From NCBI GenBank assembly GCA_026388185.1, contig JAPLKG010000008.1, positions 198,184 through 262,183 of the forward strand: 64,000 nucleotides of DNA, in the 5' to 3' direction. The position numbers and the translations under genes are program-made. The notes under the pieces are model-generated. The model had not been told where the DNA came from. It worked only from the letters and a program-made list of their open reading frames with translations, and did not search any database. This stretch comes from Candidatus Eiseniibacteriota bacterium (lineage in GTDB: Bacteria; Eisenbacteria; RBG-16-71-46; JAFGJU01). Every line of letters starts with the position of its first letter. The first letter of the stretch is position 1. This document shows positions 5,291 through 49,206 of this stretch, piece after piece.

Positions 5291-5325
5291 GAGCGCGTCG
5301 CAGGAATTCAGGAATCGAGGAAAAT

Positions 5326-6321
5326 GTGAGACCTACTTCTGCCGTCATCGCCGTCACATACAGATGTAATTCGCGTTGTGGGACTTGCGACATCTGGAAG
5401 AAAGACGTAACACCGGAGCTGCGCCCGGCTGATCTCAAAAGACTCCCGGCGGGTCTTCGCAACATAAACGTGAGTGGCGGCGAGCCCTTTCTGAGAGACG
5501 ATCTTGTAGACGTGATCGGCGTCCTGCGCGAGAGAAATCCGAGAGCGAGCATAGTAATCTCCACGAACGGCCTCCTTCCGGAGCGAATCGAGAGAGACGT
5601 GCGAAGAATGGGACGGGTCGGGGTGCGGGTCTCGATAGACGCGATGGGAGCGCTTGACGACGAAGTCAGGGGAGTGAGCGGGGCCTTTGCCCTTGCCTCG
5701 GAGACGCTTGACCGCCTGCAGGCGCTCGGGCTCGGAGACCTGGGTATCTCGGCGACCATCGGCCGGCACACTGCCGGAGACTTGAAGAAACTCAAGGAGA
5801 TGGCCGAAACTCGCGGCGTCGAGTTGGTGACGAGCCTCGTGCATAGCTCGCCTACCTATTTTGGAGAGCAAAAGGACGAGCTTCCCGAGAAGGGAAGCCT
5901 CGAAAGTGACGCCATCCAGAGGGAACTTGTCTGGTTGAGAGATCGAGAGCTCCGTTCCGCGAGACCTAAGGATTGGTTCAGGGCATATCTCACGGCCGGC
6001 ATCGTAGACCAACTCCGCGGGAAACGGAGAAGGATAAAGTGCCATGCAGGCGCGTGCTTTTTCTTCATGGAACCGGCGGGAGATATCTATCCCTGCAACG
6101 TGTGGCCCGAGAGAATGGGCAACATAGTTCTCGAGAGCTACGATGAAATGGTGGCCAACTCAGGACGGATACTTGCAGGCGTGAATGAGTGTCCGTTTCA
6201 GTGCTGGATGAGTTGCACGGTCGCACCCGCGATGAGGAAGCACCCTCTGAGACCGGCGCTTTGGGTGGTCGCGAGGAAGCTCGGAGTGAGCGAACGACAT
6301 GAAGATTCTTCAGGTAAATAA
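5326..6321 (+). CDS. Radical SAM/SPASM domain protein
   Basis: CNSRCGTC motif, SGGEPF, ISTNG, C-terminal Cys cluster (CHAG..YPCN..CPFQCWMSC); start re-set to GTG 5326 after GAGG at 5317-5320. Confidence 0.9.
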   Translation: MRPTSAVIAVTYRCNSRCGTCDIWKKDVTPELRPADLKRLPAGLRNINVSGGEPFLRDDLVDVIGVLRERNPRASIVISTNGLLPERIERDVRRMGRVGVRVSIDAMGALDDEVRGVSGAFALASETLDRLQALGLGDLGISATIGRHTAGDLKKLKEMAETRGVELVTSLVHSSPTYFGEQKDELPEKGSLESDAIQRELVWLRDRELRSARPKDWFRAYLTAGIVDQLRGKRRRIKCHAGACFFFMEPAGDIYPCNVWPERMGNIVLESYDEMVANSGRILAGVNECPFQCWMSCTVAPAMRKHPLRPALWVVARKLGVSERHEDSSGK

Positions 6322-7510
6322 GTTCTTCTTCCTCAAGGGGGGAGCCGAAAGATACTTTTTCGAGCTGTCCGGGCTTCTTTCCTCAAGAGGCCACAAGATT
6401 ATTCCGTTCTCAATGCAGGACCCCGCAAACGTGCCCTCACCGTATGCAAAGCATTTTGTGAGTAACGTGATTCTTGACGGCACAGGTTCGACCTTCCAGA
6501 AAATCAGAACCGCGGCCAGGGTGATCTACTCGTTTGAGGCGCGCAGAAAGCTGGAGGAGCTCATACACGAAGAGAGACCCGACATTGCTCACGTGCACAA
6601 CATCGCCCATCAGATTTCTCCGTCGATAATAGGCCTTCTCAAGAAACACGGGATCCCCGTCGTCCAGACTCTCCACGATTACAAGCTGGCTTGTCCTGCG
6701 TACTTGATGATCGTGAGAGGTCGCCTGTGCGACGCGTGCGTGGCCGGGAAATACTACAACGTTCTGCTGAAAAGATGTACGCACGACTCACTGCTTGCGA
6801 GCGGCGTGGCGTGCGCGGAGATGTATGTGCACAGACTGACGGGAACCTTCTCGAAGGTAGATGCATTCTTGTGCCCCAGCGAGTTCATCATGGGCGTCAT
6901 GCGGCGCTCTGGCATCGAAGCCCAGAAGCTCTTTCACGTTCCTCACTTCATCGATCTGAACCATTACGAGCCGCGTTACGGAGGCTCGGAGTCTTTCATA
7001 TACGCGGGTCGTCTGTCGGCGGAGAAGGGCCTCAAGGTGCTTCTCGAGGCCAAGCGGAACGTGAAGGGATTCAACCTCGTGGTGGCAGGCGAAGGCGAAC
7101 TCCGCGAACGGCTTGAGGCGTACGCAACGAATGACGGCGACGTTTCATTCATGGGGTTCCTTCCGAGGGAGAGACTGGCTCAAGTCTGGAGAGACGCGGC
7201 TTTCACGGTCGTGCCGTCCGTGTGTTACGAGAACTTCCCTTATACCATTCTCGAGTCGTTTGCATTCGGGAAGCCCGTGATTGCGGCCAGAATAGGCGGT
7301 ATGCCTGAACTGGTCAGAGACGGAGAGAACGGTTTCCTTGTGGAGCCTGGAAACGTCCGTGACTTGACCGAGAAGATACTATATCTTGTCTCGAGACCCG
7401 ACGAGATCTTGAGGATGGGAAGACTCGCGCGTGAAACCGCCGAGAGAACGTACTCTGCCGAGAGGCATTACGATAGCATCATGAAGCTCTACGAGAGGAT
7501 GGCAAGATGA
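6299..7510 (+). CDS. GT4 glycosyltransferase with Cys-rich insert
   Basis: KGGAERY, TLHDYKLACP, ENFPYTILESFAFGKPVIA. Confidence 0.9.
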   Translation: MKILQVNKFFFLKGGAERYFFELSGLLSSRGHKIIPFSMQDPANVPSPYAKHFVSNVILDGTGSTFQKIRTAARVIYSFEARRKLEELIHEERPDIAHVHNIAHQISPSIIGLLKKHGIPVVQTLHDYKLACPAYLMIVRGRLCDACVAGKYYNVLLKRCTHDSLLASGVACAEMYVHRLTGTFSKVDAFLCPSEFIMGVMRRSGIEAQKLFHVPHFIDLNHYEPRYGGSESFIYAGRLSAEKGLKVLLEAKRNVKGFNLVVAGEGELRERLEAYATNDGDVSFMGFLPRERLAQVWRDAAFTVVPSVCYENFPYTILESFAFGKPVIAARIGGMPELVRDGENGFLVEPGNVRDLTEKILYLVSRPDEILRMGRLARETAERTYSAERHYDSIMKLYERMAR

Positions 7511-8601
7511 AGATAGCCATGATAGGCCAAAAGGGAATCCCCGCAACCTATGGCGGCATTGAACGCCACGTGGAAGAGGTGGGAATACGGTTGGCCAGTC
7601 GGGGACACGAAGTGAGTGTGTACTGTAGGTTCTACTACACGAGGGTCACGGACAAGTATCGAGGCGTGAGGCTCCTTAGACTGCCGAGCGTGAAGACAAA
7701 ACACTTCGATACTCCGACGCATTGTGCCATCTCCACGTTGGATTCCGTGTTCAGGGGCTACGACATCGTTCACTTCCACGCCCTGGGACCTTCGCTCTTC
7801 AGTTTCATGCCACGCCTCACGGGAGCCAAGACGGTGGTTACGGTGCACGGTCTTGACTGGCAGAGGGAAAAATGGGGACCCGCCGCCTCGTGGATTCTGA
7901 AGCGCTGCGAGTATCCCGCCATCCACTTTCCTTCAAGAACTGTCGTCGTCTCACGCACTCTTCAAGAGTACTTTCGAAACAAGTATGGGATCGAGACTAC
8001 GGTTGTTCCGAACGGAACAAACATCCCCACCTCCAGAGCGTTGTCCAAGCTCAAGAAAGCGGGGCTCGAAGCGGGCAACTATGTGCTTTTCGTGGGAAGG
8101 CTTGTGCCGGAAAAAGGTTGCCACTTTCTCATCGAAGCCTTTGAGAAACTGGACACGCGTACGAAACTTGTGATTGCGGGAGGGTCGAGTTTCTCGAGCG
8201 AGTACGTCGATACCCTCAAGAGGCACGCCAGTTCCAGGGTCGTCTTCCTCGACTACGTCTACGCGGACACGCTTGAGGAACTCTGGAGCAACGCGCTGCT
8301 TGTGGTACAACCCTCCACGCTCGAAGGTCTTTCCATCTCTTTGCTAGAGGCTCTCAGCTACGGCAGATGCGTGCTCGTGAGCGACATCCCCGAAAACCTG
8401 GAAGTGGTCGAGGACTGCGCTCCGTCGTTCAGGAGCAAAGACGTCGAGGATCTGAGAAGCAAGCTTGAGATGCTGTTGGGCTCGCCCGAGTTGCTCGCGG
8501 CGTACGAAAACAAGGCCAAGCGTCACATATTGAACAGATTCACGTGGGACGGGGTGACGAACTCACTCGAGCAAGTATACCTCGAGCTTCTCTCCAAGTA
8601 G
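7507..8601 (+). CDS. GT4 glycosyltransferase
   Basis: KGIPATYGGIERHVEE, TVHGLDW, EGLSISLLEALSYG. Confidence 0.9.
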   Translation: MKIAMIGQKGIPATYGGIERHVEEVGIRLASRGHEVSVYCRFYYTRVTDKYRGVRLLRLPSVKTKHFDTPTHCAISTLDSVFRGYDIVHFHALGPSLFSFMPRLTGAKTVVTVHGLDWQREKWGPAASWILKRCEYPAIHFPSRTVVVSRTLQEYFRNKYGIETTVVPNGTNIPTSRALSKLKKAGLEAGNYVLFVGRLVPEKGCHFLIEAFEKLDTRTKLVIAGGSSFSSEYVDTLKRHASSRVVFLDYVYADTLEELWSNALLVVQPSTLEGLSISLLEALSYGRCVLVSDIPENLEVVEDCAPSFRSKDVEDLRSKLEMLLGSPELLAAYENKAKRHILNRFTWDGVTNSLEQVYLELLSK

Positions 8602-8630
8602 GTCGTTCAGGTCGGCCGAGCTTATTTGTG

Positions 8631-8659
8631 TTGAAACTGTCACCTCCCTGTGCTATAGA
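8631..8659 (+). promoter_or_regulatory. sigma70-type promoter for manC-like gene
   Basis: TTGAAA-17 nt-TATAGA with TG extended -10. Confidence 0.6.
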
Positions 8660-8694
8660 GAGTCAGAAATCTGAACAACGGGGAGGGACGTCTT

Positions 8695-9771
8695 ACGCAT
8701 AAACTCTTTGCCGTCGTATTGGCTGGCGGTAGGGGAGAAAGATTCTGGCCCTTGAGTCGGGCTTCTTCTCCCAAGCAGCTACTTCCTATCGTCGGGCGAA
8801 GAAGTCTTCTGGAATCGACCGTTTCCAGAATTGTTTCGCTCGTCCCGCCCACACGAATCTACGTCATCACCTCAAAGCATCTTCAAAGTGAGGTGGCGAA
8901 GAGACTCGCCGGCTTCAGAGGAATTACCGTCGTCGGAGAACCGGCCGGAAAGAACACGGCTCCTGCGATAGGGTTGGCGTCCAGCTTGATCTCGATGGTC
9001 GAGCCCGACGCCGTGACACTTGTGGTGCCGTCGGACCACATGGTCAAGGGAAAGAGGGAGTTCATCAGTGACGTTAGGAAGGCCGTGCGGGTAGCCCAAT
9101 CACGCAAGCTCGTCGTGTTCGGCATCAAACCTGACAGGCCGGAGACGGGCTACGGATACGTGCAGGTGGGGGGGCGCGCAGGCTCGGTTGGGAAGGGTGT
9201 TTTCACGGTGAGGAGCTTCGTGGAGAAGCCTGATCACAAGAACGCAGTCAGACTGTTGCGTTCGGGGTGTCACTATTGGAACAGTGGTATGTTTGTGTGG
9301 CGTGTAGACGCCCTGCTGGGGGAAATCCGAAAGCACCTACCCGCGCTTGCCAAGTCCATCGAGGCCTTCTCTTCGGAGTCTTCCGGCCGCTCGTTTCGCG
9401 AGAGGCTCGACCGGTTCTATTCCGGCGTGGAGGCCGTTTCGATTGACTACGGACTCCTGGAGAGATCGAGCGACATTGTGATGGTGAGGGCCAGTTTCTC
9501 GTGGGACGACGTTGGTTCCTGGCTTTCACTCGAGAGAATCTTGAGCAAGGACAAGCGGGGCAACGTTCTGTCCGGTGAGACCGTTGCGGTTGACACTCGC
9601 AATTGTGTGCTCGTCGCGTCCAGCGGTGTCGTTGCCACGTTGGGTGTCGAGAATCTTGTGGTTGTGAGAACCGAGAATGCGACCCTGGTGTGTGCCAAGG
9701 AGCGGGCGCAGGGAATAAAGAAGATATCGAGAATTCTCTCCTCTTCCAAGAAGTTGAAGAGGCATCTTTGA
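8695..9771 (+). CDS. manC: Mannose-1-phosphate guanylyltransferase (GMP domain only)
   Basis: LAGGRGERFWPLSR..PKQ, EPAGKNTAPAI, PSDH, ETGYGY, FVEKPD, WNSGMF, WDDVGSW; start uncertain (track gives TTG 8719, which lies inside the first conserved strand). Confidence 0.9.
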   Translation, partial: THKLFAVVLAGGRGERFWPLSRASSPKQLLPIVGRRSLLESTVSRIVSLVPPTRIYVITSKHLQSEVAKRLAGFRGITVVGEPAGKNTAPAIGLASSLISMVEPDAVTLVVPSDHMVKGKREFISDVRKAVRVAQSRKLVVFGIKPDRPETGYGYVQVGGRAGSVGKGVFTVRSFVEKPDHKNAVRLLRSGCHYWNSGMFVWRVDALLGEIRKHLPALAKSIEAFSSESSGRSFRERLDRFYSGVEAVSIDYGLLERSSDIVMVRASFSWDDVGSWLSLERILSKDKRGNVLSGETVAVDTRNCVLVASSGVVATLGVENLVVVRTENATLVCAKERAQGIKKISRILSSSKKLKRHL

Positions 9772-12742: not shown

Positions 12743-14277
12743 AAGCAAAGCTACGCGTGTGTATTGTGAGCGCCGAGATGATTCCTTTTGCCAAAGTGGG
12801 AGGACTCGCTGACGTGGTGGGTTCTCTCTCGAAGACTCTGGCGTCCATGGGGCATGACGTTTCTGTTTTTCTGCCAAGATACGCTTGCGTCGGGAGCAAG
12901 GAATTCGGGCTCAAGAAGGTGAAATTCAACGGCCGCCTTGCCGTGACGCTCGGGACTCAAGAGAAGAAGATAGACGTCTGGGAGTGTGCCGCCAGGGGTT
13001 CACGCGCCAGGATCTATTTTGTGGGTAACGAATCGCTTTTTGGCAGGGAGGGCATATACACTGACCCCAAGACGAGGGAGGACTATCCCGACAACGGGCA
13101 GAGGTTCACATTTTTTTCCAAGGCCGTTCTCGAAGTCATCAAGAGCCTCTCGCTCCATTTTGATGTCATTCACTGTAATGATCACCAGACGGGTCTAATA
13201 CCGCTCTTTCTGCGCGGGGAGTACTCGGGAGAAAAAGTGCTTGCAAATGTCGCGACTCTTTTCACCATTCACAATCTTGGCTACCAGGGAGTCTATCCGC
13301 TCGAGAGCATCGCGCAGACGGGCCTTCCCGAGGAGCTTGCTTATCCCATGGGACCCCTCGAATTCTGGGGGAAGCTCAATTTCATGAAGGCAGCGATCGT
13401 GTACGCCGATCTGATCTCGACGGTCAGCGAGACGTACGCGAAGGAGATCCAGACGAGCGAAGAGTACGGATTCGGCTTGCAAGGGGTGCTCACCGCAAGA
13501 ACCGAAGATCTTTTCGGTGTCCTCAACGGTGTGGATTACACCGCCTGGAATCCCTTAAGGGATAGATATGTTCCTTACAAGTACGGTCCCGGATACACAG
13601 GAAACAAGACAAAGGACAAGATGCATCTCATCGAGCAGCAGAGGCTGACCGGACTTACGCAGAACAGCTTTTTGATCGGAATAGTCTCAAGGCTTGCGGA
13701 TCAAAAGGGGTTTGACCTCCTGGAAGCTGTTTCGGAAGAAATGCTTTCATTGGACGTCGGCTTGGTGATGTTGGGCACGGGCCAGCAGAAGTACCACGAT
13801 TTCTTCTCGCAGCTCAAATCAAGATATCCTGGCAAGGTTTCGTTGACCCTGGAGTTCAATGAGAAGATGGCCCATCTCATCGAAGCAGGCTCGGACGCAT
13901 TTCTCATGCCCTCCAGGTACGAGCCTTGCGGGCTGAACCAGATGTATAGTATGAGGTACGGAACTATTCCGGTGGTGCGGTTCACGGGAGGCTTGGCCGA
14001 CACGGTGAAGGAGTTCGATCCGACGTCTGGAACGGGTACCGGTTTTGTGTTCCAAGAATACAGCGCCGAGGCTCTGATGGAAGTCGTGAGAAGGGCCTAC
14101 GCGACCTTCCTTGACAAGGAACGGTGGGCAGCGGTCGTGAAGAACGCCATGGAGGAGGATTTTTCTTGGAGACGTGCGGCACGGGGCTACGTGGAGCTGT
14201 ACAGAAAGGCGATCACGAAGAAGTGCAGCGCCCCTTTCGCTGATTGGGTTTCTTCCGTGGCCGAAACAACTCTGTGA
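12739..14277 (+). CDS. glgA: Glycogen synthase
   Basis: KVGGLADV (KxGG), HCNDHQ, TIHNLGYQG, SRLADQKG, PSRYEPCGL. Confidence 0.95.
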   Translation: MKAKLRVCIVSAEMIPFAKVGGLADVVGSLSKTLASMGHDVSVFLPRYACVGSKEFGLKKVKFNGRLAVTLGTQEKKIDVWECAARGSRARIYFVGNESLFGREGIYTDPKTREDYPDNGQRFTFFSKAVLEVIKSLSLHFDVIHCNDHQTGLIPLFLRGEYSGEKVLANVATLFTIHNLGYQGVYPLESIAQTGLPEELAYPMGPLEFWGKLNFMKAAIVYADLISTVSETYAKEIQTSEEYGFGLQGVLTARTEDLFGVLNGVDYTAWNPLRDRYVPYKYGPGYTGNKTKDKMHLIEQQRLTGLTQNSFLIGIVSRLADQKGFDLLEAVSEEMLSLDVGLVMLGTGQQKYHDFFSQLKSRYPGKVSLTLEFNEKMAHLIEAGSDAFLMPSRYEPCGLNQMYSMRYGTIPVVRFTGGLADTVKEFDPTSGTGTGFVFQEYSAEALMEVVRRAYATFLDKERWAAVVKNAMEEDFSWRRAARGYVELYRKAITKKCSAPFADWVSSVAETTL

Positions 14278-14328
14278 AGGTCCGGAGAGACCCTGGGCAA
14301 TTGCTTCGGCGAATCAACGCGGGATGCT

Positions 14329-15552
14329 TCACGCATTAGGAACTGACGCTTCCTCTATGAAGGCCCTGTGCAACTCTCTCACTGCCTGCTCGAGCCTTTC
14401 CTCCGGAACCAGGCATGACAAGGTGATGGCAGTGCTGATCGAGGCGTAGGGAATTATTCCGAGGGACGCCAGGGTCACGAACGTCTCCGAGCATGTGTTG
14501 GCCGCCCAGAGGAGATTCGACCCGACTATCGATACAAGCCCGACGCCGGTGACAAGCTCCATTTTTCCACCCATCTTGTCCAGGACGGATCCGCATGCCT
14601 CCACGAGCGCTTTTTTGTCGGACTCGTGAACGACAAAGAGAAGCGCGGCCCCGCCGGATGGAACCAGCGATTCGTTGAAGAGTCTCACTTCCACACCGGT
14701 TCCTTCAAGCCTCTTGAAGAGCGAGGACGTGGTTTCGTTTACCTTCGCGATTCCGCTGAGTCTTGCCAGTATCATCCCTCCCGTATGAGCTATCCCCGTG
14801 ACGCGTTTTGTGTCCGTGATCGACTTCCCGGTCACCATTGTCCCCCTTTCTGACGAGAAACTGGAGCGCACATGAAGCGGCACGTCGTACTTGTAGGCGA
14901 GCTCGACGGCCGTGTGATGCACTACACCGGCGCCAGATGCGGAGAGTTCCAGCATCTCTTCGAAGGAGACGCAGTCGAGCTTTTTCGCTCCAGGCACGAT
15001 CCTCGGGTCCGCGCTGAAGACACCTGCGACGTCTGTGTAAATCTCGCACTCCTTCGCCCCGAAGGCGGAAGCCAGCGCGACGGCCGTAGTGTCTGACCCA
15101 CCCCTTCCCAGTGTCGTGACCTCTCTGGTCGGGCTCACACCCTGGAAACCCGCCACAATCACGATTCGGTCCTTGCTCAGTTCCTCGCTTATCCTGAAAG
15201 CTTTTACGTCGACTATCCTCGCGCGGGTGTGTTTGGAGTCGGTCATGATCCCGCTTTGTGAACCCGTGAAGGAAATGGCCTCACATCCCCTGTCGTTGAT
15301 TGCCATCGAAAGCAAAGCCATAGAGATTCTCTCGCCGGCGGTGAGAAGCATGTCAAGCTCTCTCGAAGAAGGGATTCGCGACACCTTCATTGCCAGGCCG
15401 AGAAGCTCGTTTGTGGTGTCACCCATCGCCGACACCACGACGATGAGATCGTTGCCCAATCGTTTTGTCCCTACTACTCTGTCGGCGATCGACATCACCT
15501 GCTCGACGGTCGCCAGGGAAGAGCCCCCGTATTTCTGCACTACAAGGTTCAT
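14329..15552 (-). CDS. lysC: Aspartate kinase (monofunctional, ACT domains)
   Basis: [36 protein letters not shown]. Confidence 0.95.
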
Positions 15553-15735
15553 GGGAGTGACTCAGAACCCAGCAGCATCGCTGCCGGGGCTTTGTGTGAG
15601 AGAAAAGTGCGTCCGATTGACCAAGAACGGCAGCACAACGATTCTCGTCCTTGTCTCTCTGACCAGCTTCAACGTGATGTGCTCCAAATGATAGCAGAAC
15701 GCGATTACGGGTCTAGTCAATTGTTCCGGTACTTC

Positions 15736-15764
15736 TTGACAAGGGCTCCATCAGAAGGTATATT
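15736..15764 (+). promoter_or_regulatory. sigma70 promoter for tRNA-Gly/tRNA-Cys
   Basis: TTGACA-17 nt-TATATT. Confidence 0.75.
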
Positions 15765-15793
15765 CTAGCCGTAAACAAGGGAGAATCATGTGA

Positions 15794-15870
15794 GCGGAAG
15801 TAGCTCAGCCCGGTAGAGCTCCACCTTGCCAAGGTGGCCGTCGCGGGTTCAAATCCCGTCTTCCGCTCCA
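15794..15870 (+). tRNA. tRNA-Gly(GCC)
   Basis: Cloverleaf GCGGAAG..., anticodon loop TTGCCAA, GGTTCAAATCC, encoded CCA. Confidence 0.95.
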
Positions 15871-15927
15871 TTGACGACATGCCTCTCAACGGCCGCCAGC
15901 CTCTTGGACCGCTTGCGGCTGGACCGT

Positions 15928-16003
15928 GGCGGCATAGCCAAGTGGCTAAGGCGACGGTCTGCAAAACCGTTATTCTCCGGTTCGAATCCGGATGCCGCCT
16001 CCA
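15928..16003 (+). tRNA. tRNA-Cys(GCA)
   Basis: GGCGGCA...TGCCGCC acceptor stem, loop CTGCAAA, GGTTCGAATCC, encoded CCA. Confidence 0.95.
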
Positions 16004-16076
16004 AAACCTCTTTTTTCCTCCTAGGCTCTCCTACAGTCCCAGCCGTGGAGAGAACACCGAGCACTCAGAGCAGAAG

Positions 16077-16118
16077 AAAAAAACAGCCGGCGCGCCCGCT
16101 CGACGGGAAGCGCCGGCT
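16077..16118 (-). terminator. Intrinsic terminator after HTH-small peptide unit
   Basis: 9-bp stem AGCCGGCGC/GCGCCGGCT followed on the minus strand by GTTTTTTT. Confidence 0.8.
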
Positions 16119-16133
16119 TATGCGCGAAGTTTC

Positions 16134-16190
16134 TCAGCACTTCTTTGCTTTCTTCGCGACTTTCTTTGTCTTTGCTTTCTTCTTGGCCAT
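16134..16190 (-). CDS. 18-aa Lys/Ala-rich peptide MAKKKAKTKKVAKKAKKC (not in ORF track)
   Basis: ATG preceded by AAAGGAGG about 8 nt upstream, TGA stop, intrinsic terminator directly downstream. Confidence 0.7.
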   Translation of the reverse strand: MAKKKAKTKKVAKKAKKC

Positions 16191-16245
16191 GAGTTTTCCC
16201 TCCTTTCACGGTCAGGGGTGTTGCGCGGGCGATTCACCCACCGTC

Positions 16246-40824: not shown

Positions 40825-42324
40825 ATGCCACACGTGTCCGATCTTCCGAGAGTGAGATTTGCACCAAGTCCGACAGGATATCTTCATGTGGGCGGTGCGA
40901 GGACGGCGCTCTTCAACTGGTTGTTTGCCCGTTCCAAGTGCGGCACGTTCATTCTCAGAATCGAAGACACGGACTCGGCGCGTTCCACGGAAGAATCTCT
41001 GGGCACGATCCTGAAGACCATGCTCTGGTTGGGACTAGACTGGGACGAAGGGCCTGGCAAGGAAGGTGCAGCGGGTCCTTACTTCCAATCCAGGAGGATG
41101 GATACCTACCTTAGGTTCGCGTCCGTGCTCCTGGCGTCTGGACATGCTTACAAGTGTTTCTGTTCGCTCGAGGAGCTCAAAGAGAGAAAAGCAGAGCTGC
41201 TGGCACAGAAGCACGCCTCCCACTACGACGGAAGGTGCAGCGCACTCTCGGCAAGTGAAATCGCTTCTCGAGAGAAAAGGGGAGAGCCCTGCGTTTTGAG
41301 GTTTCGGGTGAGGGCAGGCTCGACGGCTTGGGAGGATGCTGTCAAAGGTCGAATAGAGTTCGCCAACACCGAGCTCGATGATTTCGTCATCCTGCGTTCG
41401 GACGGCACCCCCACGTACAACTTTGCCGCCGCGGCGGACGACATTTCCATGCGAATCACGCACGTCATCAGGGGTGACGAACACGTCTCGAATACTCCCC
41501 GGCAGCTTCTTCTCTACGAGGCCCTCGGCGAAACCCAACCCATTTTTGCCCACATTCCTATGATTCTGGGGCCGGACGGGACAAAGTTGAGCAAGAGGCA
41601 CGGAGCGGTTGCCCTTTCGCACTACGAGAGACAGGGTTTCCTTCCCGAGGCAATGGTGAACTTCCTTGCCTTGTTGGGTTGGTCTTACGACGGAAAACAG
41701 GAGATCTTCAGCACGAGTGAACTAGTGGAGAAATTCTCTCTGGAACGGGTGGGTTCAAACCCGTCGGTTTTCGACCAGGAGAAACTCCTGTGGTTGAATG
41801 GGCAATACATGAAGAGACTCTCGCTCTCCGAGAGGACCGACTTGGTGACGCGCTATCTGCGCGAAGTAGAAGGAATGAATGGGGTGGATGAGACGAAAGA
41901 CTGGATTGCCGGCATAACTCAAGCGTTGGGAGAAAGGCTCAGGGTCGCTTCACAGATAACCGAGCAAGCGGATTTCTTCTTCCTCGAAAGGGTGCAATAC
42001 GATGAGAAGGCGAGAGAGCTACTCCTATCAGGAGAGGGAACTCGAGAACTCCTGATTGCAGTGGCCGATGCGCTGGAATGTCTCGGAGACTACAACGCCG
42101 GCTCCATCGAACAAGCGGTGCGAAGTCTGGCGGGAAGGATGAACCTCAAGGCGGGTGAGCTCATCCATCCAGCAAGGGCAGCTCTCACCGGCAAGACAAC
42201 AAGTCCTGGAATCTTCGAGATCATGGAGCTTCTTGGAAGGGAACGATCGGTATCTCGCTTGAGGGAGGCCGCGCTCTTCGCGGGCGCCAATTCTGCTCCC
42301 AGCGAGCCGGGCGAACACGCGTGA
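40825..42324 (+). CDS. gltX: Glutamate--tRNA ligase
   Basis: RFAPSPTGYLHVGG, LRIEDTD, IRGDEH, KLSKR, anticodon-binding domain ending SPGIFE. Confidence 0.96.
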   Translation: MPHVSDLPRVRFAPSPTGYLHVGGARTALFNWLFARSKCGTFILRIEDTDSARSTEESLGTILKTMLWLGLDWDEGPGKEGAAGPYFQSRRMDTYLRFASVLLASGHAYKCFCSLEELKERKAELLAQKHASHYDGRCSALSASEIASREKRGEPCVLRFRVRAGSTAWEDAVKGRIEFANTELDDFVILRSDGTPTYNFAAAADDISMRITHVIRGDEHVSNTPRQLLLYEALGETQPIFAHIPMILGPDGTKLSKRHGAVALSHYERQGFLPEAMVNFLALLGWSYDGKQEIFSTSELVEKFSLERVGSNPSVFDQEKLLWLNGQYMKRLSLSERTDLVTRYLREVEGMNGVDETKDWIAGITQALGERLRVASQITEQADFFFLERVQYDEKARELLLSGEGTRELLIAVADALECLGDYNAGSIEQAVRSLAGRMNLKAGELIHPARAALTGKTTSPGIFEIMELLGRERSVSRLREAALFAGANSAPSEPGEHA

Positions 42325-42365
42325 GCGCCGTAGGTTACTGCCCGCGCAGCGAGCGCACAAAGAGG

Positions 42366-42394
42366 TTGAAAAGGGCCGGGCCGTGTGCTAGGTT
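42366..42394 (+). promoter_or_regulatory. sigma70 promoter for tRNA-Gln/tRNA-Glu
   Basis: TTGAAA-17 nt-TAGGTT with TG extension. Confidence 0.55.
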
Positions 42395-42408
42395 ACGCAG
42401 GACGACAC

Positions 42409-42482
42409 TGGGGAGTCGTCCAGTGGTAGGACGGCAGACTCTGGATCTGCTTACTGGGGTTCGAATCCTCACTCCCCAGCCA
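42409..42482 (+). tRNA. tRNA-Gln(CTG)
   Basis: TGGGGAG/CTCCCCA stem, loop CTCTGGA, GGTTCGAATCC, CCA. Confidence 0.95.
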
Positions 42483-42506
42483 AGATCGCATCGGAAGACC
42501 TTCATT

Positions 42507-42581
42507 GGCGCCATCGTCTAGTGGTTAGGACAGGTGGTTCTCAGCCATCAGACCGGGGTTCGACTCCCCGTGGCGCTACCA
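42507..42581 (+). tRNA. tRNA-Glu(CTC)
   Basis: GGCGCCA/TGGCGCT stem, loop TTCTCAG, GGTTCGACTCC, CCA. Confidence 0.95.
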
Positions 42582-42622: not shown

Positions 42623-44128
42623 CTAAAACGGGAAGTTCGTGGCAAGCCAGAGAGAGTAGCACTCCTCCTCGGCATCGGGCACGGTGAAGCACAGAGCCGT
42701 GCCGTCAGGTCTCCACGCAGGCCAGTTCGCGCCGGTGCTCGTCAGTTGGCCCTCGACCGGTGTGGGAGTGGCATCCAGGAATAGAATCCAGACGTTTTCC
42801 GTTCCATCTTGCGAAGAAACGTAGGCCACCTTATTTCCGTCCGGCGACCAACTCGGATGTACACCGGCGACTTGAGAAACCTGCGCCGGAGTTCCTCCCG
42901 CAGAGGGAACTGTGAAAAGATACGGCTCGCCCCCCACGGTCTTCGAGAAAACGATTTGGTCTCCGTCCGGCGACCATGATGGTCTATCCTCCACGACGTC
43001 CGTTGCAATCGGCGTCGCAGATCCGCCTAAACTCGACATGACCTTCAACGAAAAGCTTCCGGCTTCGTCAGCCACGAAGGCGATTTGGTTGCCGTCCGGG
43101 GACCAGACCGGGTAGTTGGCCGTTCCCGTGTAGACGAGCTCCGCCTCCCCTCCGTAGGGATAGCCGCATATCGGCACTTTGTAGATTAGGCTCACGCCCG
43201 TGCGCGATGAAGCAAAGAGAACCGCACAATCGGCGGGGCGCCAAGACGGGCCCCAGCTTTGCTGGGCGCCAGTGCCTGTCTGTATCACGTCCTCCACGGC
43301 GTCCGGCCAGGACGATTCGAATATGGCCAGAACGCGGTAACCCAGAGCGACGTTTTCTGTGCCGCAGGCCACTTTTTCCCCGTCGGCCGACCACGAGCTC
43401 TGCGTAACGCAGTCATTGCCGGTCATCTGCGTCATCGACATCGCTTCTTCGTTCAACTTGAAGCGCACGCGGACGATGCTTCCGTCAGTCACCTCCACGC
43501 TGCTCGCATTCGGGGAGTAGACGTAGGGTGACCTCTCTACTTCCAGAAGGTAGCTTCCCGCAGGGGCGTCGGACATTGTGAAAGGCGTTGAGTACGGGGT
43601 GGGTTCAGAGTCGATCAGTATCGTCGCGCCTTGGGGAAAGCTCTCTATCACGAGATACCCAACGCCCACGGGGACCGCGCGCGTCATCGAGACCTCGTTT
43701 GCCTCGTCGCTGATGTGAACCGTCAACGTACACGTCGCGGCCACAGAAGGCGCTATCCACTCGACCGATTGACCGAGGGAATCTATCAACGTGCCGGCGC
43801 TCGCCCTCCACAGGAAAGTGAGCGGTTGGCCCTCCGGATCGCCGGCGATTGCAGCAGCCGTGATGGTGTCCCCCGGCGCCGCTCTTGGTGGAGTGAGCTG
43901 GATCGCGTTTATCGAGGGAGGAAGGTTTTGAGGGGCGACCGTCTTTTCGTTACCGGAGCAGCCCGCCAGCATCGTGGCCGTGACGAACACGGCGGCTGCA
44001 ACAAGCAAGATAACAAAACCACGCAGCATGTGTTGTGCGGACGATTGTGAACGGAAACCGAACATTCTGGGACCTGCAGCGTACCTCATTCTTTCTCCCG
44101 CGTTCTCGGTCTTGCACTCGCCTCCCAA
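42623..44128 (-). CDS. TolB-like PD40 beta-propeller lipoprotein with PKD-like and PEGA domains
   Basis: Lipobox LAGC, ESFPQGATILID (PEGA), repeated P.WSPDG; start uncertain. Confidence 0.85.
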   Translation of the reverse strand: MGGECKTENAGERMRYAAGPRMFGFRSQSSAQHMLRGFVILLVAAAVFVTATMLAGCSGNEKTVAPQNLPPSINAIQLTPPRAAPGDTITAAAIAGDPEGQPLTFLWRASAGTLIDSLGQSVEWIAPSVAATCTLTVHISDEANEVSMTRAVPVGVGYLVIESFPQGATILIDSEPTPYSTPFTMSDAPAGSYLLEVERSPYVYSPNASSVEVTDGSIVRVRFKLNEEAMSMTQMTGNDCVTQSSWSADGEKVACGTENVALGYRVLAIFESSWPDAVEDVIQTGTGAQQSWGPSWRPADCAVLFASSRTGVSLIYKVPICGYPYGGEAELVYTGTANYPVWSPDGNQIAFVADEAGSFSLKVMSSLGGSATPIATDVVEDRPSWSPDGDQIVFSKTVGGEPYLFTVPSAGGTPAQVSQVAGVHPSWSPDGNKVAYVSSQDGTENVWILFLDATPTPVEGQLTSTGANWPAWRPDGTALCFTVPDAEEECYSLWLATNFPF

Positions 44129-44230
44129 GGCAATTGCGAAACAACGTTACCACATATCCGAGCTTCGTTCAACGCTACCCGTTCCCCGGCATGGCGCGTG
44201 CACCGTCCTTGAGTGACCGGCCGAGGCATG

Positions 44231-44259
44231 TTGCCTGACTCGGATCTTTCTGATAGCAT
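44231..44259 (+). promoter_or_regulatory. sigma70 promoter of the QPTR operon
   Basis: TTGCCT-17 nt-TAGCAT with TG extension; very short leader. Confidence 0.55.
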
Positions 44260-44282
44260 ACGGTAGCGAGAAGAGGAGGCAC

Positions 44283-44894
44283 ATGATACTGATTATTGCT
44301 CTGTACGTCGCGTGCGAGCTCACGGCCAACGTTACGGCTTCGAAGCCGGTTGCACTGGGTCGCATCGTCGTCCCTTCTGCAGTCTTCATCTACACGATGA
44401 CCTTTACTCTCATAGACCTGATAAACGAGAAGCTGGGGAAGAAACGCGCGCGGCAGGTGATTTACAGTACGTTCGCCGCAAACATTTTGCTTGCGCTCTA
44501 CTTTCAACTCGCGATTTCGCTACCCTCTGCCTCGTTTTACTCCAACCAGAGAGCCTTTGCCTCCGTGCTCGGAGCAACGCCGAGGATCGTCGCTGCGAGC
44601 CTCACGGCTTACCTGATGAGTTCCCTCATCGATACACAGGTATTTGCGTGGTGGAGGGAGAAAATAGGTGGGGCCAGATGGTTGAGGGTGCTCATAAGCA
44701 ATTCGATCTCGACCGCCGTCGACAGCGCGTTGTTCATTACTCTTGCTTTCTACGGCCTCATGCCGTTGCTTGCTCTAATTGAAGGCCAGTACCTTGTCAA
44801 GATGACCGTCACTGTGGTGAGTCTTCCGTTGATATATCTGGTGAAGAGCAGAAGGACCGGCGCGGAAGGGAGTGGAGTGTCCTGGGACGCGTAG
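44283..44894 (+). CDS. yhhQ: Queuosine precursor transporter (YhhQ/QPTR, VUT family)
   Basis: ANVTASK, TFTLIDLINEKLG...A, PRIVAASL.AYL.S, SN.IS..VDS.LFITLAF; GGAGG SD. Confidence 0.88.
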   Translation: MILIIALYVACELTANVTASKPVALGRIVVPSAVFIYTMTFTLIDLINEKLGKKRARQVIYSTFAANILLALYFQLAISLPSASFYSNQRAFASVLGATPRIVAASLTAYLMSSLIDTQVFAWWREKIGGARWLRVLISNSISTAVDSALFITLAFYGLMPLLALIEGQYLVKMTVTVVSLPLIYLVKSRRTGAEGSGVSWDA

Positions 44895-45622
44895 TGGGAA
44901 TAGTGGGAGTTCCTCCCATCGAAATAATCGAGAGACTCGTCAAAGGAAGGGACGAGATCGTCGACCTCGACGCCACCGTTTCTCTTGTCGACGTGGAGGC
45001 AGAGGCGAGGCTGATCCCTCGTTACTACTGTGCGATATTGAGAACTGTGCTCTCCAATGCGCTCAGACTCGAACTTGACGAAATCTTCGTGGACGTCGGC
45101 CACGGTAAATGCGATGGCGCTCGTCACATAAAGGAAATTCTTGAAAGAGAGCTTCCGATTCCCATCACGGAAACTGAAAACGACGACGGCGACAGACGCG
45201 GCAATCCCATCTGCGTTTCTTCGATGTCACTCGCTCAGAAGTTTGAGAAGATTGTTGAGAGCGTGAAACATCCGGGTGGGCTGAAAGGCGACTTTTTTCC
45301 GTCCAAAGCCACGTGCGGGTTCTGGGGAGTGCCGCCGAGAGACTTTGGCTTGCTCGAGCTCTTTCCGCCGGAGACTCACGTTTTCGGATGGACGCGATGC
45401 ATGGAAAACAAGACCCCCGCTGACAGAGAACTCGAACTCACGTTCGATCCTTCAATACCGACCGTCTTTTTTGCCCAATCCTTCTGCGCGAAGAACTCTA
45501 TCGCGTATTATCTTGCGCGCGCACACCCCAGAGGATTCTACGTGGATGGAGACTTCGACATCAGCGCGAGCACCAGAGCAAAGGTGGAGGCTTTTCTCGA
45601 ACTCAACGGAGTCAGACGTTGA
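44894..45622 (+). CDS. Uncharacterised Cys-rich protein, probable Fe-S partner of the HgdC-type activator
   Basis: Duplicated G.(V/W)GVPP motif, six Cys, ends TRAKVEAFLE as in HgdAB/HGD-D C-termini; stop/start overlaps on both sides. Confidence 0.6.
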   Translation: MGIVGVPPIEIIERLVKGRDEIVDLDATVSLVDVEAEARLIPRYYCAILRTVLSNALRLELDEIFVDVGHGKCDGARHIKEILERELPIPITETENDDGDRRGNPICVSSMSLAQKFEKIVESVKHPGGLKGDFFPSKATCGFWGVPPRDFGLLELFPPETHVFGWTRCMENKTPADRELELTFDPSIPTVFFAQSFCAKNSIAYYLARAHPRGFYVDGDFDISASTRAKVEAFLELNGVRR

Positions 45623-46317
45623 TAATAGGGGATTTCGGAACTTCCTATACGAAACTCTGGGAACCAGGTTCGACCCGGGGCCCTCAGGTGATCAGAAGCA
45701 CGGAACTTGCCCCCCACGTGAGAGCGGATTACGGAACCGGTCACAACGCGGCTTTGAGAGCGGATCGAGTGGTGAACGAGCTCGTAGCACTTGCGACCGG
45801 AGCGAGGAAGCGCATCGAAGCTCCCGACTTCCTCGTTCTTGACTGTGGCAGCAGAGACGTCAAATTTGTGGTTTTCGAGAAGGGCAGATTTGAGAGAGCC
45901 GGCTGGAATTCTGAATGCGGATCTTCCATGGGGTTCTCGATCGAGCTTCTCGAGATGCACTTCAAGCTTGACTACAAGGACATCCCCGTGCCGTACGAAC
46001 ATCTGCCGGTAGCCTGTGGAGTCTTGGGCGTGAGCGCTGTCTTTGACGCCGTATCGAGGGGAGAGGAAGTCGAGCAAGCGGTGGCCAAGTTTGTCAAGGG
46101 GATAGCGGTGAATGCTCACAGATTTGCTGGCTGTCCCAGGACGGTTTACCTGTGCGGAGGCCTCTGCGAGAATCCACTCTTTGTGAGAAGTATGCCCGCC
46201 CGCGTGGTGTCACTGGGAAGATTCCTGCTTCTGGAAGGATTGGTCGAGCTGGTGAAACGGGAAAAGGGTCCAGACGCGCGTCGGGCGAGAAACGGGGCTG
46301 CCGACAAAGGCTGCTAA
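45619..46317 (+). CDS. BadF/BadG/BcrA/BcrD (HgdC-like) ASKHA ATPase activator
   Basis: GDFGTSYTK, GTGH, NELVALATG, LDCGSRDVK, NSECGSSMG, ACGV, LCGGL.EN. Confidence 0.85.
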   Translation: MIIGDFGTSYTKLWEPGSTRGPQVIRSTELAPHVRADYGTGHNAALRADRVVNELVALATGARKRIEAPDFLVLDCGSRDVKFVVFEKGRFERAGWNSECGSSMGFSIELLEMHFKLDYKDIPVPYEHLPVACGVLGVSAVFDAVSRGEEVEQAVAKFVKGIAVNAHRFAGCPRTVYLCGGLCENPLFVRSMPARVVSLGRFLLLEGLVELVKREKGPDARRARNGAADKGC

Positions 46318-46844
46318 TCCAGGAGGAGCGACAGGCCGGCTCGAAGCGTCGTCGTGCTCACGTCGGGGGTCGCGAATTCTCGCGTGTAGCGCAGCTCCAA
46401 ACGGACGAGGCCCGACTCCGTGACGGGCAACCTCAACCCTGCCCCCAGGTTCAACATTCCGTTTGTCTCATCTCCTTCGTATTCAAGACCGCCCCTTTCC
46501 CATTCGCTGTGAGACCTGGCAAACCCGAACCCGGCGAGCATGAAGGGGTAGGGAGCAGAAACCGTCTCAAAGTTGTAGATGAAATCAGCAAGAAACGCGA
46601 GCCTGGAATTGGAGAGCCCGTCCGACGTTCGTGAATACCCCATCTCGAACTCCAACTCGGACCCGGGAGCGATAACTACGCCGAAGCGCGGTCCCAGGTA
46701 AATGGAGGAGCCGTCTTCTGGAAACGCAATCTCGGCGCTGCCTCCCAATTCGTGCGTTCCGGGAGGCAGGATGTCTGCACTCGCACAGAGAGAGAACGAA
46801 ACCGACAGGAAGCACACACCCAGAAGTGCAAGTTTCTTTCGCAA
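46314..46844 (-). CDS. Outer-membrane beta-barrel protein
   Basis: TTG 46844 after GGAGG, signal peptide, alternating strands, terminal LRAGLSLLLD. Confidence 0.75.
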   Translation of the reverse strand: MRKKLALLGVCFLSVSFSLCASADILPPGTHELGGSAEIAFPEDGSSIYLGPRFGVVIAPGSELEFEMGYSRTSDGLSNSRLAFLADFIYNFETVSAPYPFMLAGFGFARSHSEWERGGLEYEGDETNGMLNLGAGLRLPVTESGLVRLELRYTREFATPDVSTTTLRAGLSLLLD

Positions 46845-46922
46845 ATTGCACCTCCAATCAACGAGTGGGCTTTGCTTGAGCAGACCCAAGACGAAGGCCG
46901 ATCTGGTCATCCAGTTCATCTA

Positions 46923-47660
46923 TTACAAATGGAATCTGATGCAGGAGTTGAAGCAGATCCCGCTGAAGTCCAGGCTCATCTTTTGTCCGTTGCTCATGAG
47001 CACAGGCGCACCGTTGTCGTTGTAAGTCAGCTCGGAGATCTTTGCGTGTCTGTAGAGAAGTTCTCCGCCAACCGAAACCCACGGTCTGACGAAGTATTCC
47101 ACGCCGCCGCTTGCCTGCAAGCCAATGCCGTCCCCATCGGCCGTTCGCAAGTAGGGGCTGGGGAAATAGACGGGGATTGTCTCGGCAGACTCTGTCTTGA
47201 GTCTACCCAGCCAGAGATAGGATATGCCTGCGCCCACCGTGTAGACGAGTTTCGGATTCTTGGCGTTGCTCACTACGTAGAGCACGCGACCGGTAACAGG
47301 GACAGTGCTTGCATGTATCTCCAGTTCCCTGAATGTCTCGCCCACTATCTCGAGACCCACTTTGGTGGACTCGTAGAGATACTCAATCGTGGCTGAGAGG
47401 GCAATATTCGGCAGCGCTCTTATGCGGAGCTCCCCTCCGCCGGAAGGACCGCTTCCAAAGTCGTTGAGCTCGTCGAAGTTCCGGGGCGCCAGCACGTCGT
47501 TTACCTCGTTTACGGCCACGTTCATGTCGCTCATCGTGTAGGTGCTAAAGCCTCCCCTGATGCCGATGGAGATTGGAGGAATAACAGACTCGGCTACTGC
47601 CAAAGCCTGGCAAGAGAGAAGCATCGAGAAGAGCAAAGATGCAGCTACAACGTACTTCAT
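46923..47660 (-). CDS. Outer-membrane beta-barrel protein
   Basis: ATG 47660 after GGAGG, signal peptide, GGVEYF..SVGGELLY, terminal IRFHL. Confidence 0.75.
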   Translation of the reverse strand: MKYVVAASLLFSMLLSCQALAVAESVIPPISIGIRGGFSTYTMSDMNVAVNEVNDVLAPRNFDELNDFGSGPSGGGELRIRALPNIALSATIEYLYESTKVGLEIVGETFRELEIHASTVPVTGRVLYVVSNAKNPKLVYTVGAGISYLWLGRLKTESAETIPVYFPSPYLRTADGDGIGLQASGGVEYFVRPWVSVGGELLYRHAKISELTYNDNGAPVLMSNGQKMSLDFSGICFNSCIRFHL

Positions 47661-47904
47661 GATTTCCTCCTGTATCCTCTCAAAACACCCCGCAGGAGTT
47701 GACACACACGACTCTCAGAGGGCCACACTCTTCAAAGAGCTAAAATTTATACCAAACCGGCCGCCGTTGCAACGAATTTGTTTGAATCTGAATGTGCTAC
47801 CCGACGAGCGCGACCGGCGCGCCGGAACTGGGGCGTTGAATCCACGCATTCTTTGTGTTAGATTCCGCATGAGTTTCTTGCAATCAGCTTGCGAGTAGGA
47901 GACA

Positions 47905-49206
47905 TTGCTCATGAGGTTGAACCACTCTCTTCTTGTGGCGATTCTCGCCTCGACGGTTGCTGGTCTCTGCTTGGTTGCCCTTCCGCCTCCGCTCCTTGCG
48001 TCGGACTTCGGGTTCGATTCTCAAAGAGCAAGAGAGTCACCCCACTTTTACGCAGATGCGACCTTTTTTCCGTCTCTGGAGAAGGAAGGGACGCTGGAGA
48101 TTCATTACGACATCTCGTACAGCCAGCTCAAGTTCCTGAAGAGGACGGACGGATTCCTCGCCCGCTTCGAGGTTCAAGCGGTGCTGTACGATACCAAGGG
48201 CAAACAGGTGGGAGGCGACTCGTGGCGAAGGAACGTGGCGTGCTCCTCATACAAGGAGACGATTTCTCCGGAGGGCTCCTACCAGGAAACGTTCAGGCTC
48301 GAGGTGGCCGCGGGCAGATACAACCTCTTGGTGAGAACGGAGAATCTCGACGCCGAGGAAAGATCTTCGGTCTTGCTCAAACTCGATCTTGAACCCTTCA
48401 AGTTTCTTCCTGCGATAAGCGATCTCCTCATCGGCAGGTGCCGCGCTGACTCAGCAGATTCAGGCCAGCTGCGTTCGAGGCTCGTTCCTTTTCCCAGGGC
48501 CAGGTTTGGCGAGAGGTTTCCCACTGTCTGCGTCTACGGGAATCTCTACGATACTCCCGCGGAAGGGGACACCGGGGTCGCTCGGATCGCGTGGAGGGTC
48601 TTGGATGAGGAGGGTACCGTCAAATTGCAGGACACCCTCAACGTCACAAGAAAGGGCAGGATCTCGCCCTTTCTTGTGACGTATTCGGTAGACAACCTCA
48701 CCATGGGAAGGCACACGCTTGAGCTCTTTCTCGGCCGCATGAAAGGAACGCCCAGCGCACGTAGAACGTTTGAAGTGGATGAGAGCAAGTTCGATCTTGA
48801 CAAGAAGATCGATGACACTCTCGCCCTTCTCAGCTACATCGCGCCTCGCTCGGAGACAGAGGCTATCAAACAAGCCGCCGGCGCAGAAAGGAAGCGTCTG
48901 TGGATCGAGTTCTGGAAGAAGAAGGACCCGTACCCTGAGACACCGGAAAACGAGTTCCTCATGGAGTTCTTCGACAGAGTTGGATATGCGAATGAAAATT
49001 TTTCCTCCATACAACGAGGTTGGAAGACTGACCGGGGAAGAATCTACATAAGAAGGGGGGCGCCGGACCAGATCGACAGCAGGCCCTTCAATGCCGCGGG
49101 GCCTGCCTACGAGGTGTGGTACTACTACCAGCAGAACCTGGCGTTTGTATTTGTCGACAGGATGGGATTGGGCGACTACGAACTTGTGGGGCCAAATCGC
49201 GAATGA
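47905..49206 (+). CDS. GWxTD domain-containing protein
   Basis: FWKKKDP.P.T.ENE..EFF.RV.YAN..F...GWKTDRGRIYI..G.PD. Confidence 0.9.
   Translation: MLMRLNHSLLVAILASTVAGLCLVALPPPLLASDFGFDSQRARESPHFYADATFFPSLEKEGTLEIHYDISYSQLKFLKRTDGFLARFEVQAVLYDTKGKQVGGDSWRRNVACSSYKETISPEGSYQETFRLEVAAGRYNLLVRTENLDAEERSSVLLKLDLEPFKFLPAISDLLIGRCRADSADSGQLRSRLVPFPRARFGERFPTVCVYGNLYDTPAEGDTGVARIAWRVLDEEGTVKLQDTLNVTRKGRISPFLVTYSVDNLTMGRHTLELFLGRMKGTPSARRTFEVDESKFDLDKKIDDTLALLSYIAPRSETEAIKQAAGAERKRLWIEFWKKKDPYPETPENEFLMEFFDRVGYANENFSSIQRGWKTDRGRIYIRRGAPDQIDSRPFNAAGPAYEVWYYYQQNLAFVFVDRMGLGDYELVGPNRE

Follow-up and report, generated by a model that had tools for sequence, protein, structure and literature searches.

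A candidate ATP-dependent iron–sulphur reductase of preQ0 encoded with the queuosine-precursor transporter YhhQ

Known reductases and the yhhQ–pX–pY locus

QueF is the NADPH enzyme that converts preQ0 (7-cyano-7-deazaguanine) to preQ1 (7-aminomethyl-7-deazaguanine), and no other enzyme family is known to take a nitrile directly to a primary amine (November 2026 review, PMC13740343). QueF has a T-fold, forms a covalent thioimide and consumes 2 NADPH, and it uses neither a metal cluster nor ATP. Here we describe a three-gene set, yhhQ–pX–pY, in a stretch of 64,000 nucleotides of contig JAPLKG010000008.1 from a Candidatus Eiseniibacteriota bacterium (hereafter the window). The gene structure, folds, conserved cysteines, gene neighbourhoods and phyletic patterns documented below suggest that pX and pY probably constitute a two-component, ATP-dependent iron–sulphur (Fe-S) reductase that converts preQ0 to preQ1 as a non-homologous replacement of QueF. 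The set comprises three co-directional open reading frames over 44283-46317:

44283-44894, + strand: yhhQ, transporter of the QPTR family, ATG start, 203 amino acids (aa)
44894-45622, + strand: pX, small Fe-S protein, GTG start, 242 aa
45619-46317, + strand: pY, activator-type ATPase, TTG start, 232 aa

The double-cubane cluster protein (DCCP) and DCCP-R of Carboxydothermus hydrogenoformans (PDB 6ENO, 7YYL/7YZM) are among the described systems closest to pX–pY, as they likewise combine a homodimer-type ASKHA ATPase carrying a bridging cluster with an Fe-S catalytic protein of the HgdAB fold. With ATP, DCCP can reduce acetylene and other small unsaturated molecules. DCCP-R is the best match of pY in both sequence and fold, and the leading fold matches of pX include DCCP. 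However, DCCP has about 420 aa as opposed to the 242 aa of pX, the two share about 12% identity, and pX, with three invariant Cys residues, may lack the double-cubane ligand set of DCCP. Furthermore, DCCP has no known physiological substrate and no known link to queuosine.

The 2-hydroxyacyl-CoA dehydratases hold their catalytic cluster on three Cys residues, leaving one iron site open. HgdAB/HgdC and HadBC/HadI resemble pX–pY in the architecture of the activator ATPase, in both cluster Cys residues and in the catalytic fold (3o3m_B, E = 3e-6), but their catalytic components are heterodimers, each subunit having about 375-420 aa; their substrates are CoA thioesters, and a single electron is recycled. 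Unlike the setting of these dehydratases, no CoA-pathway genes are found near pX–pY. Class I benzoyl-CoA reductases (BcrABCD and MbdONPQ) share with the pair an ATP-driven transfer of low-potential electrons and a stoichiometric use of these electrons. pX finds its best fold match in MbdON (9gai_B, E = 1e-6), and MbdP/Q are among the top matches of pY, although the benzoyl-CoA reductases act on an aromatic CoA substrate, are built from four different subunits and possess a far larger catalytic module.

QueF resembles pX–pY in the proposed reaction and in its pathway position, including the slot after queD-queE-queC, and its phyletic spread is complementary to that of the pair, but there is no homology between them. 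In comparison with QueF, pX–pY would be oxygen-sensitive, ferredoxin-dependent and ATP-consuming. Full-text searches of a literature library found no paper tying an Fe-S/ATPase pair of this kind to queuosine. The pair falls within a known mechanistic superfamily, in which its family, its minimal architecture and its reaction would all be new.

Folds and conserved residues of the encoded proteins

pX contains exactly six Cys residues, at positions 46, 73, 107, 141, 169 and 198, in agreement with the original prediction, made from the DNA letters, which described a six-Cys middle protein much shorter than HgdA/B-type subunits; the structural relatives of pX do have 373-422 aa. The same prediction noted a duplicated GVPP motif. 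The motif is present at residues 5 and 145, and both copies are conserved throughout the family, but beyond GxxGVPP no significant similarity links the two halves of pX (z = 0.7), so that a true internal duplication is not supported. No Pfam family covers pX, the match to HGD-D (PF06050) being below the threshold (20.6 bits versus 28.4) and restricted to residues 35-91. A profile search of pX against PDB sequences gives no match, and a HMMER comparison with DCCP gives nothing even at E <= 10. The family comprises 1279 homologues at 90% clustering, with members of about 237-308 aa, and an exhaustive phmmer search with pX yields 68 clusters at 50% identity, all of which belong to the family itself or to its fragments, with no classical HgdA/B among them. 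Among 34 diverse members, three Cys residues never vary (C46, C73 and C198) and C169 hardly does.

The AlphaFold (AF2) model of pX has a predicted local distance difference test score (pLDDT) of 93.5. Foldseek comparison of the model with the PDB gives seven matches with E <= 0.001, all of which are MbdON, HadBC or DCCP, with template modelling scores (query) of 0.55-0.63. These are the catalytic subunits of 3-methylbenzoyl-CoA reductase and 2-hydroxyisocaproyl-CoA dehydratase and the double-cubane cluster protein, with E of about 1e-6. pX is encoded by a single gene with no second HGD-D-like gene in the operon, and neither pX nor pY shows homology to QueF (PF14489) or to QueG/QueH. We therefore propose that pX is a minimal Fe-S protein of the HgdAB/BcrBC/DCCP fold and that it may act as the catalytic subunit of a preQ0 reductase.

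The sequence of pY matches DCCP-R (7yyl_E, 7e-7), HadI and HgdC, and its scores against PF01869 (BcrAD_BadFG; 16.9 bits, cut-off 31.5) and TIGR00241 (30.7 bits, cut-off 125.4) are both below the thresholds. The ten best Foldseek matches of the pY model (pLDDT 85) are DCCP-R, HadI, MbdP/Q and HgdC, with E values from 3e-10 to 1e-8; the matches to sugar kinases and actin-like proteins are far weaker. C100 in the ECGSS motif and C133 in the ACGV motif align with the cluster-Cys region of DCCP-R and HadI, and both residues, together with the phosphate and adenosine motifs, are invariant among 21 homologues. Fold and alignment thus agree with the earlier description of pY as an HgdC-type ASKHA ATPase retaining both cluster-type Cys residues, and we propose that pY is an "archerase" of the HgdC/HadI/DCCP-R type that would inject electrons in an ATP-driven manner. 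Judging from the modelled folds, the original prediction was right to regard the two proteins as a minimal ATP-driven pair resembling Fe-S reductases or dehydratases.

In the mechanism that we infer, including its cluster type, oligomeric state, substrate, electron count and ATP coupling, pY is presumably a homodimer with one [4Fe-4S] cluster bridged through C100 and C133. This dimer would take an electron from ferredoxin or flavodoxin and, driven by ATP hydrolysis, pass it on to pX at very low potential. pX would carry a [4Fe-4S] cluster on C46, C73 and C198, and since only three Cys residues would ligate this cluster, one iron site would be open for the nitrile. Bound at the open iron, the nitrile of preQ0 would take up four electrons, each in a one-electron/proton step, and become the aminomethyl group of preQ1.

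YhhQ scores well above the curated cut-offs of both of its family models and matches over its full length (PF02592, Vut_1: 143.7 bits, cut-off 27.2, E = 7.7e-42; TIGR00697: 124.9 bits, cut-off 50.95), so that its earlier assignment to QPTR is solid. Homologues from many phyla with 65-70% identity are annotated as queuosine precursor transporters. YhhQ is thus clearly a QPTR/COG1738 member and a predicted transporter of the queuosine precursors preQ0 and preQ1. The QPTR protein of Escherichia coli imports both preQ0 and preQ1, and a Chlamydia member imports queuine (PMC11130926); E. coli YhhQ prefers preQ0 (PMC5372724).

Linkage to queuosine genes and exclusion of QueF

Gene neighbourhoods were counted over 181 pX loci. 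Distant pX homologues were taken from assemblies and metagenomes, and their neighbours were typed with a gene panel and Pfam. pX and pY are adjacent in 163 of these loci, and this pairing is far beyond chance. The yhhQ–pX–pY arrangement occurs in the clade of the window and in two further clades, in one of which (clade B) YhhQ is 41% and pX about 46% identical to the proteins of the window, and in the other of which (clade C) the corresponding values are 57% and 44%. Mapped on the pX tree, the adjacency to yhhQ involves at least three separate changes. In three other loci (L112, L113 and L117), in which pX is 40% identical, the gene order is queD-queE-queC-pX-pY. The queF gene of the Bacillus subtilis queCDEF operon holds the position after queC/D/E, and pX–pY occupy this place in the three loci. 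In addition, pX is followed by a transporter of the QueT family (PF06177, 52.4 bits, over the cut-off), which besides YhhQ is the other family known to import queuosine precursors, and QueH adjoins the pair in L181 and L192. The original prediction saw the pair beside yhhQ and would expect que neighbours elsewhere; such neighbours are yhhQ in at least three divergent clades, queT, queD-queE-queC and queH, but most of the 181 loci have no que neighbour. A queuosine role of pX–pY is well supported, and the general proposal of an undescribed anaerobic 7-deazapurine module agrees with the fold, the conserved cluster Cys residues and the repeated que linkage in unrelated lineages.

The pair is present in 341 of about 185,000 species genomes. 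It is a near-core gene pair of the Desulfobulbia, the clade sister to that of the window in the pX tree (support 100/99). Among 151 sampled Desulfobulbia genomes scored for pX, QueF, QueC and QueH, pX is found in 126, QueF in 11 and both in none (Fisher's exact p = 2.8e-10, a value that overstates independence, since the exclusion may reflect few evolutionary events). Fourteen genomes have neither, and 10 of these also lack QueC. The mutual exclusion with queF expected by the original prediction therefore holds, with an overlap of 0 in the 151 genomes. The 11 open reading frames of QueF fall into a short class of 161-238 aa and a long class of 275-296 aa, consistent with the unimodular and bimodular subfamilies, and therefore more than one lineage takes part. 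QueC is present in 123 of the 126 genomes with pX, and QueH is present in 142 of the 151. Since nearly all pX carriers have QueC and QueH and none of them has QueF, the gap lies at the step from preQ0 to preQ1. In the phylum of the window, QueF scores over the cut-off in 113 of 201 genomes, and in neither of the two genomes that carry pX, both of which belong to the family of the window.

The genome that contains the window has a queH-queA-tgt cluster at positions 13347-16201 of the same contig (C5), about 182 kb upstream of the window. QueC, QueD, QueE and QueF were searched for and not found in this genome, the one weak match to the QueF model being FolE next to folP. The presence of queH-queA-tgt together with the absence of queC, queD, queE and queF leads us to read yhhQ–pX–pY as a preQ0 salvage cassette. 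In this organism, preQ0 would be imported by YhhQ and reduced to preQ1 by pX–pY, and TGT, QueA and QueH would then complete queuosine on tRNA. The salvage step that the original prediction listed as an alternative is close to this reading, in which import of preQ0 is followed by reduction; its lead example, an epoxyqueuosine reductase, is not retained. QueC and QueF are absent from all five genomes of the family of the window, and therefore queuosine precursors from other organisms are needed. Among close relatives, yhhQ–pX–pY lies at the same site in three lineages. In one relative lacking the set, the site is empty between the same flanking PD40 and outer-membrane protein (OMP) genes (L109, genome G038, 7956-9699), and in another a methyltransferase gene and a metallophosphatase gene lie at the syntenic site (L108, genome G090, 4534-8242). 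The trio thus behaves as one unit that is gained or lost as a whole.

Competing explanations and significance

Several points weigh against pX–pY as a preQ0 reductase. The support is comparative-genomic throughout. Three close relatives that do not carry the trio are likewise devoid of QueF and QueC, and the pattern within the family therefore fits the model but has no discriminating power. A published scheme calls a genome with tgt, queA, queH and yhhQ but without queF a preQ1-only salvager (PMC5372724). In the Desulfobulbia, home of most carriers, the pair usually follows lptG with no que gene (91 of the 181 loci), and in another 43 loci the neighbours are neither que genes nor lptG. Deep-branching pX members lie beside thiC, nadA, pdxST or panC, with lysS also among the neighbours, and these deep-branching pairs may serve another function than the queuosine-linked clades do. 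In one low-GC clade (L118-L126), up to 6 kb around pX contain no pY. Finally, no preQ1 or other riboswitch is found upstream of the operon in the window and 13 related loci.

The QueF gap and the que neighbourhoods would be explained equally if TGT inserted preQ0 into tRNA and pX–pY reduced preQ0-tRNA to preQ1-tRNA before the action of QueA, and the tRNA-acting QueH does adjoin the pair in two loci. The insertion of preQ0 by archaeal TGT also counts in favour of such an order, with bacterial TGT taking preQ0 poorly. However, pX and pY consist of the catalytic and ATPase folds only, with no added RNA-binding domain, and the tight coupling to YhhQ and QueT, which import free bases, fits a free-base substrate better. 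A reduction at the tRNA level is therefore unlikely.

If pX–pY acted on an unrelated small substrate, the que neighbourhoods and the exclusion of QueF would be coincidences of lineage history. The large share of loci without a que neighbour and the varied vitamin-gene neighbours would fit this explanation, and the exclusion could come from few ancestral events. On the other hand, four kinds of que gene (yhhQ, queT, queDEC and queH) adjoin pX in separate branches of the tree, two unrelated families of queuosine-precursor transporters are both found beside pX, and the trio is gained or lost as a single unit. Moreover, about 123 genomes with QueC and QueH would still be left without a preQ0 reductase. 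We consider an unrelated substrate quite unlikely.

Activator-type ATPases are electron injectors by nature, and the neighbours of the pair include the Fe-S enzymes NadA, ThiC, QueE and QueH. It is therefore conceivable that pX–pY delivers electrons to, or reactivates, another Fe-S enzyme, such as QueH, QueE or an enzyme of cofactor pathways, without itself reducing preQ0. However, QueH is present in 9 of the 11 Desulfobulbia genomes with QueF and without pX, in many other genomes without pX, and in control genomes such as those of Thermotoga and Lactococcus. The pair is therefore not an accessory of QueH, and an activator for QueH is rejected on these grounds. An accessory role would also leave unexplained why pX and QueF never occur together while QueC and QueH do occur with pX, and the fold of pX is that of a catalytic partner and not of an adaptor. 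Such a role is thus distinctly improbable.

An alternative epoxyqueuosine reductase replacing QueG or QueH, the lead example of the original prediction, would suit an Fe-S reductase-like pair beside a queuosine gene but is rejected as extremely improbable, since QueH exceeds the cut-off in each of the 10 pair-bearing genomes that were tested, that of the window among them, is common in the Desulfobulbia and adjoins the pair in two loci, leaving no gap at the epoxyqueuosine step; the expected mutual exclusion with queG/queH accordingly fails for QueH, and QueG, whose absence would suit this role, is not found over the cut-off in the same 10 carriers.

Returning to the reduction of preQ0 by pX–pY, we think it reasonably likely that the pair is the first ATP-driven Fe-S nitrile reductase and the second, unrelated enzyme for the conversion of preQ0 to preQ1, and that it replaces QueF in most Desulfobulbia, including cable bacteria, and in scattered anaerobes. 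If so, a gap in queuosine biosynthesis would be filled for a whole bacterial class, and YhhQ/QueT operons would turn organisms classed as "preQ1-only" salvagers, the genome of the window included, into preQ0 users. Predictions of which organisms make, need and compete for queuosine precursors would change accordingly. No catalytic module smaller than pX would be known in the HgdAB/BCR/DCCP superfamily, and a physiological substrate would for the first time be assigned within the DCCP-like branch. The pair would also give an orphan family a function and provide a minimal model for the ATP-driven "archerase" Fe-S reductases. An unrelated solution to the QueF reaction would also be of interest to enzymology and biocatalysis. 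A direct test of the hypothesis would be cheap, as laboratory strains exist and both preQ0 and preQ1 can be bought.

Operon signals and surrounding genes

The stop and start codons of the three genes overlap as originally described. The TAG stop of yhhQ and the GTG start of pX have one base in common (TAGTG), and the TGA stop of pX and the TTG start of pY have four bases in common (TTGA). Two expression signals were read in front of yhhQ:

44232-44260, + strand: weak, tentative promoter-like element TTGCCT-17 nucleotides-TAGCAT, read by eye, with 8 of 12 consensus positions, below the scanner threshold
44270-44279, + strand: strong Shine-Dalgarno sequence GAAGAGGAGG, 3 nucleotides 5' of the yhhQ ATG, read from the sequence

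A consensus scan of 43900-46700 gave 0 sigma-70 sites, so that the single promoter of the original prediction is reduced to this weak by-eye element. No terminator of note is present in the operon region, and no riboswitch or any other Rfam family is found in 43500-46600. Base composition gives no clear signal of recent horizontal transfer, the GC content of the trio being 0.53-0.55 and that of the nearby sequence 0.52-0.61.

In the Desulfobulbia, the pair is translationally coupled to a gene for an LptF/LptG-family permease in L001 (6919-9430) and in about 90 other loci. LptF/G has been put forward as a candidate queuosine-precursor transporter because it is clustered with queuosine salvage genes in Bacteroidota, but it gave no complementation in E. 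coli (PMC11130926). On a Desulfobulbia contig (L164, 6780-9656), genes for a GT2-like glycosyltransferase, a small membrane protein and an ArnT-like protein lie between pX and pY; this is the sole split pair that we met, and its inserts are of the lipid-A-modification type. In view of the failed complementation and of these inserts, lptG looks like an ordinary envelope gene whose adjacency to the pair is historical, and a role of the Desulfobulbia lptG as an importer of queuosine precursors is not favoured.

The cofactor neighbours of the deep-branching pairs L091, L094, L202 and L114 are ferredoxin-nadA with panC, thiC, pdxS-pdxT and a gene for a thiamine-binding protein. In L121, pX is followed by a gene for a 310-aa protein with a QueT domain.

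The operon of the window is flanked by genes for a PEGA/PD40 beta-propeller lipoprotein, two small OMP beta-barrels and a GWxTD-domain protein (42623-44128, - strand; 46314-47705, - strand; 47905-49206, + strand), and this PEGA/PD40-OMP-GWxTD block is kept in relatives with or without the trio. Further upstream, 40825-42581 contains gltX followed by tRNA-Gln(CTG) at 42409-42482 and tRNA-Glu(CTC) at 42507-42581, and relatives keep the gltX-tRNA pair in synteny (L010). Immediately 5' of pX, a tRNA-Gln(CTG) is found in a separate clade of Thermodesulfobacteriota (L013).

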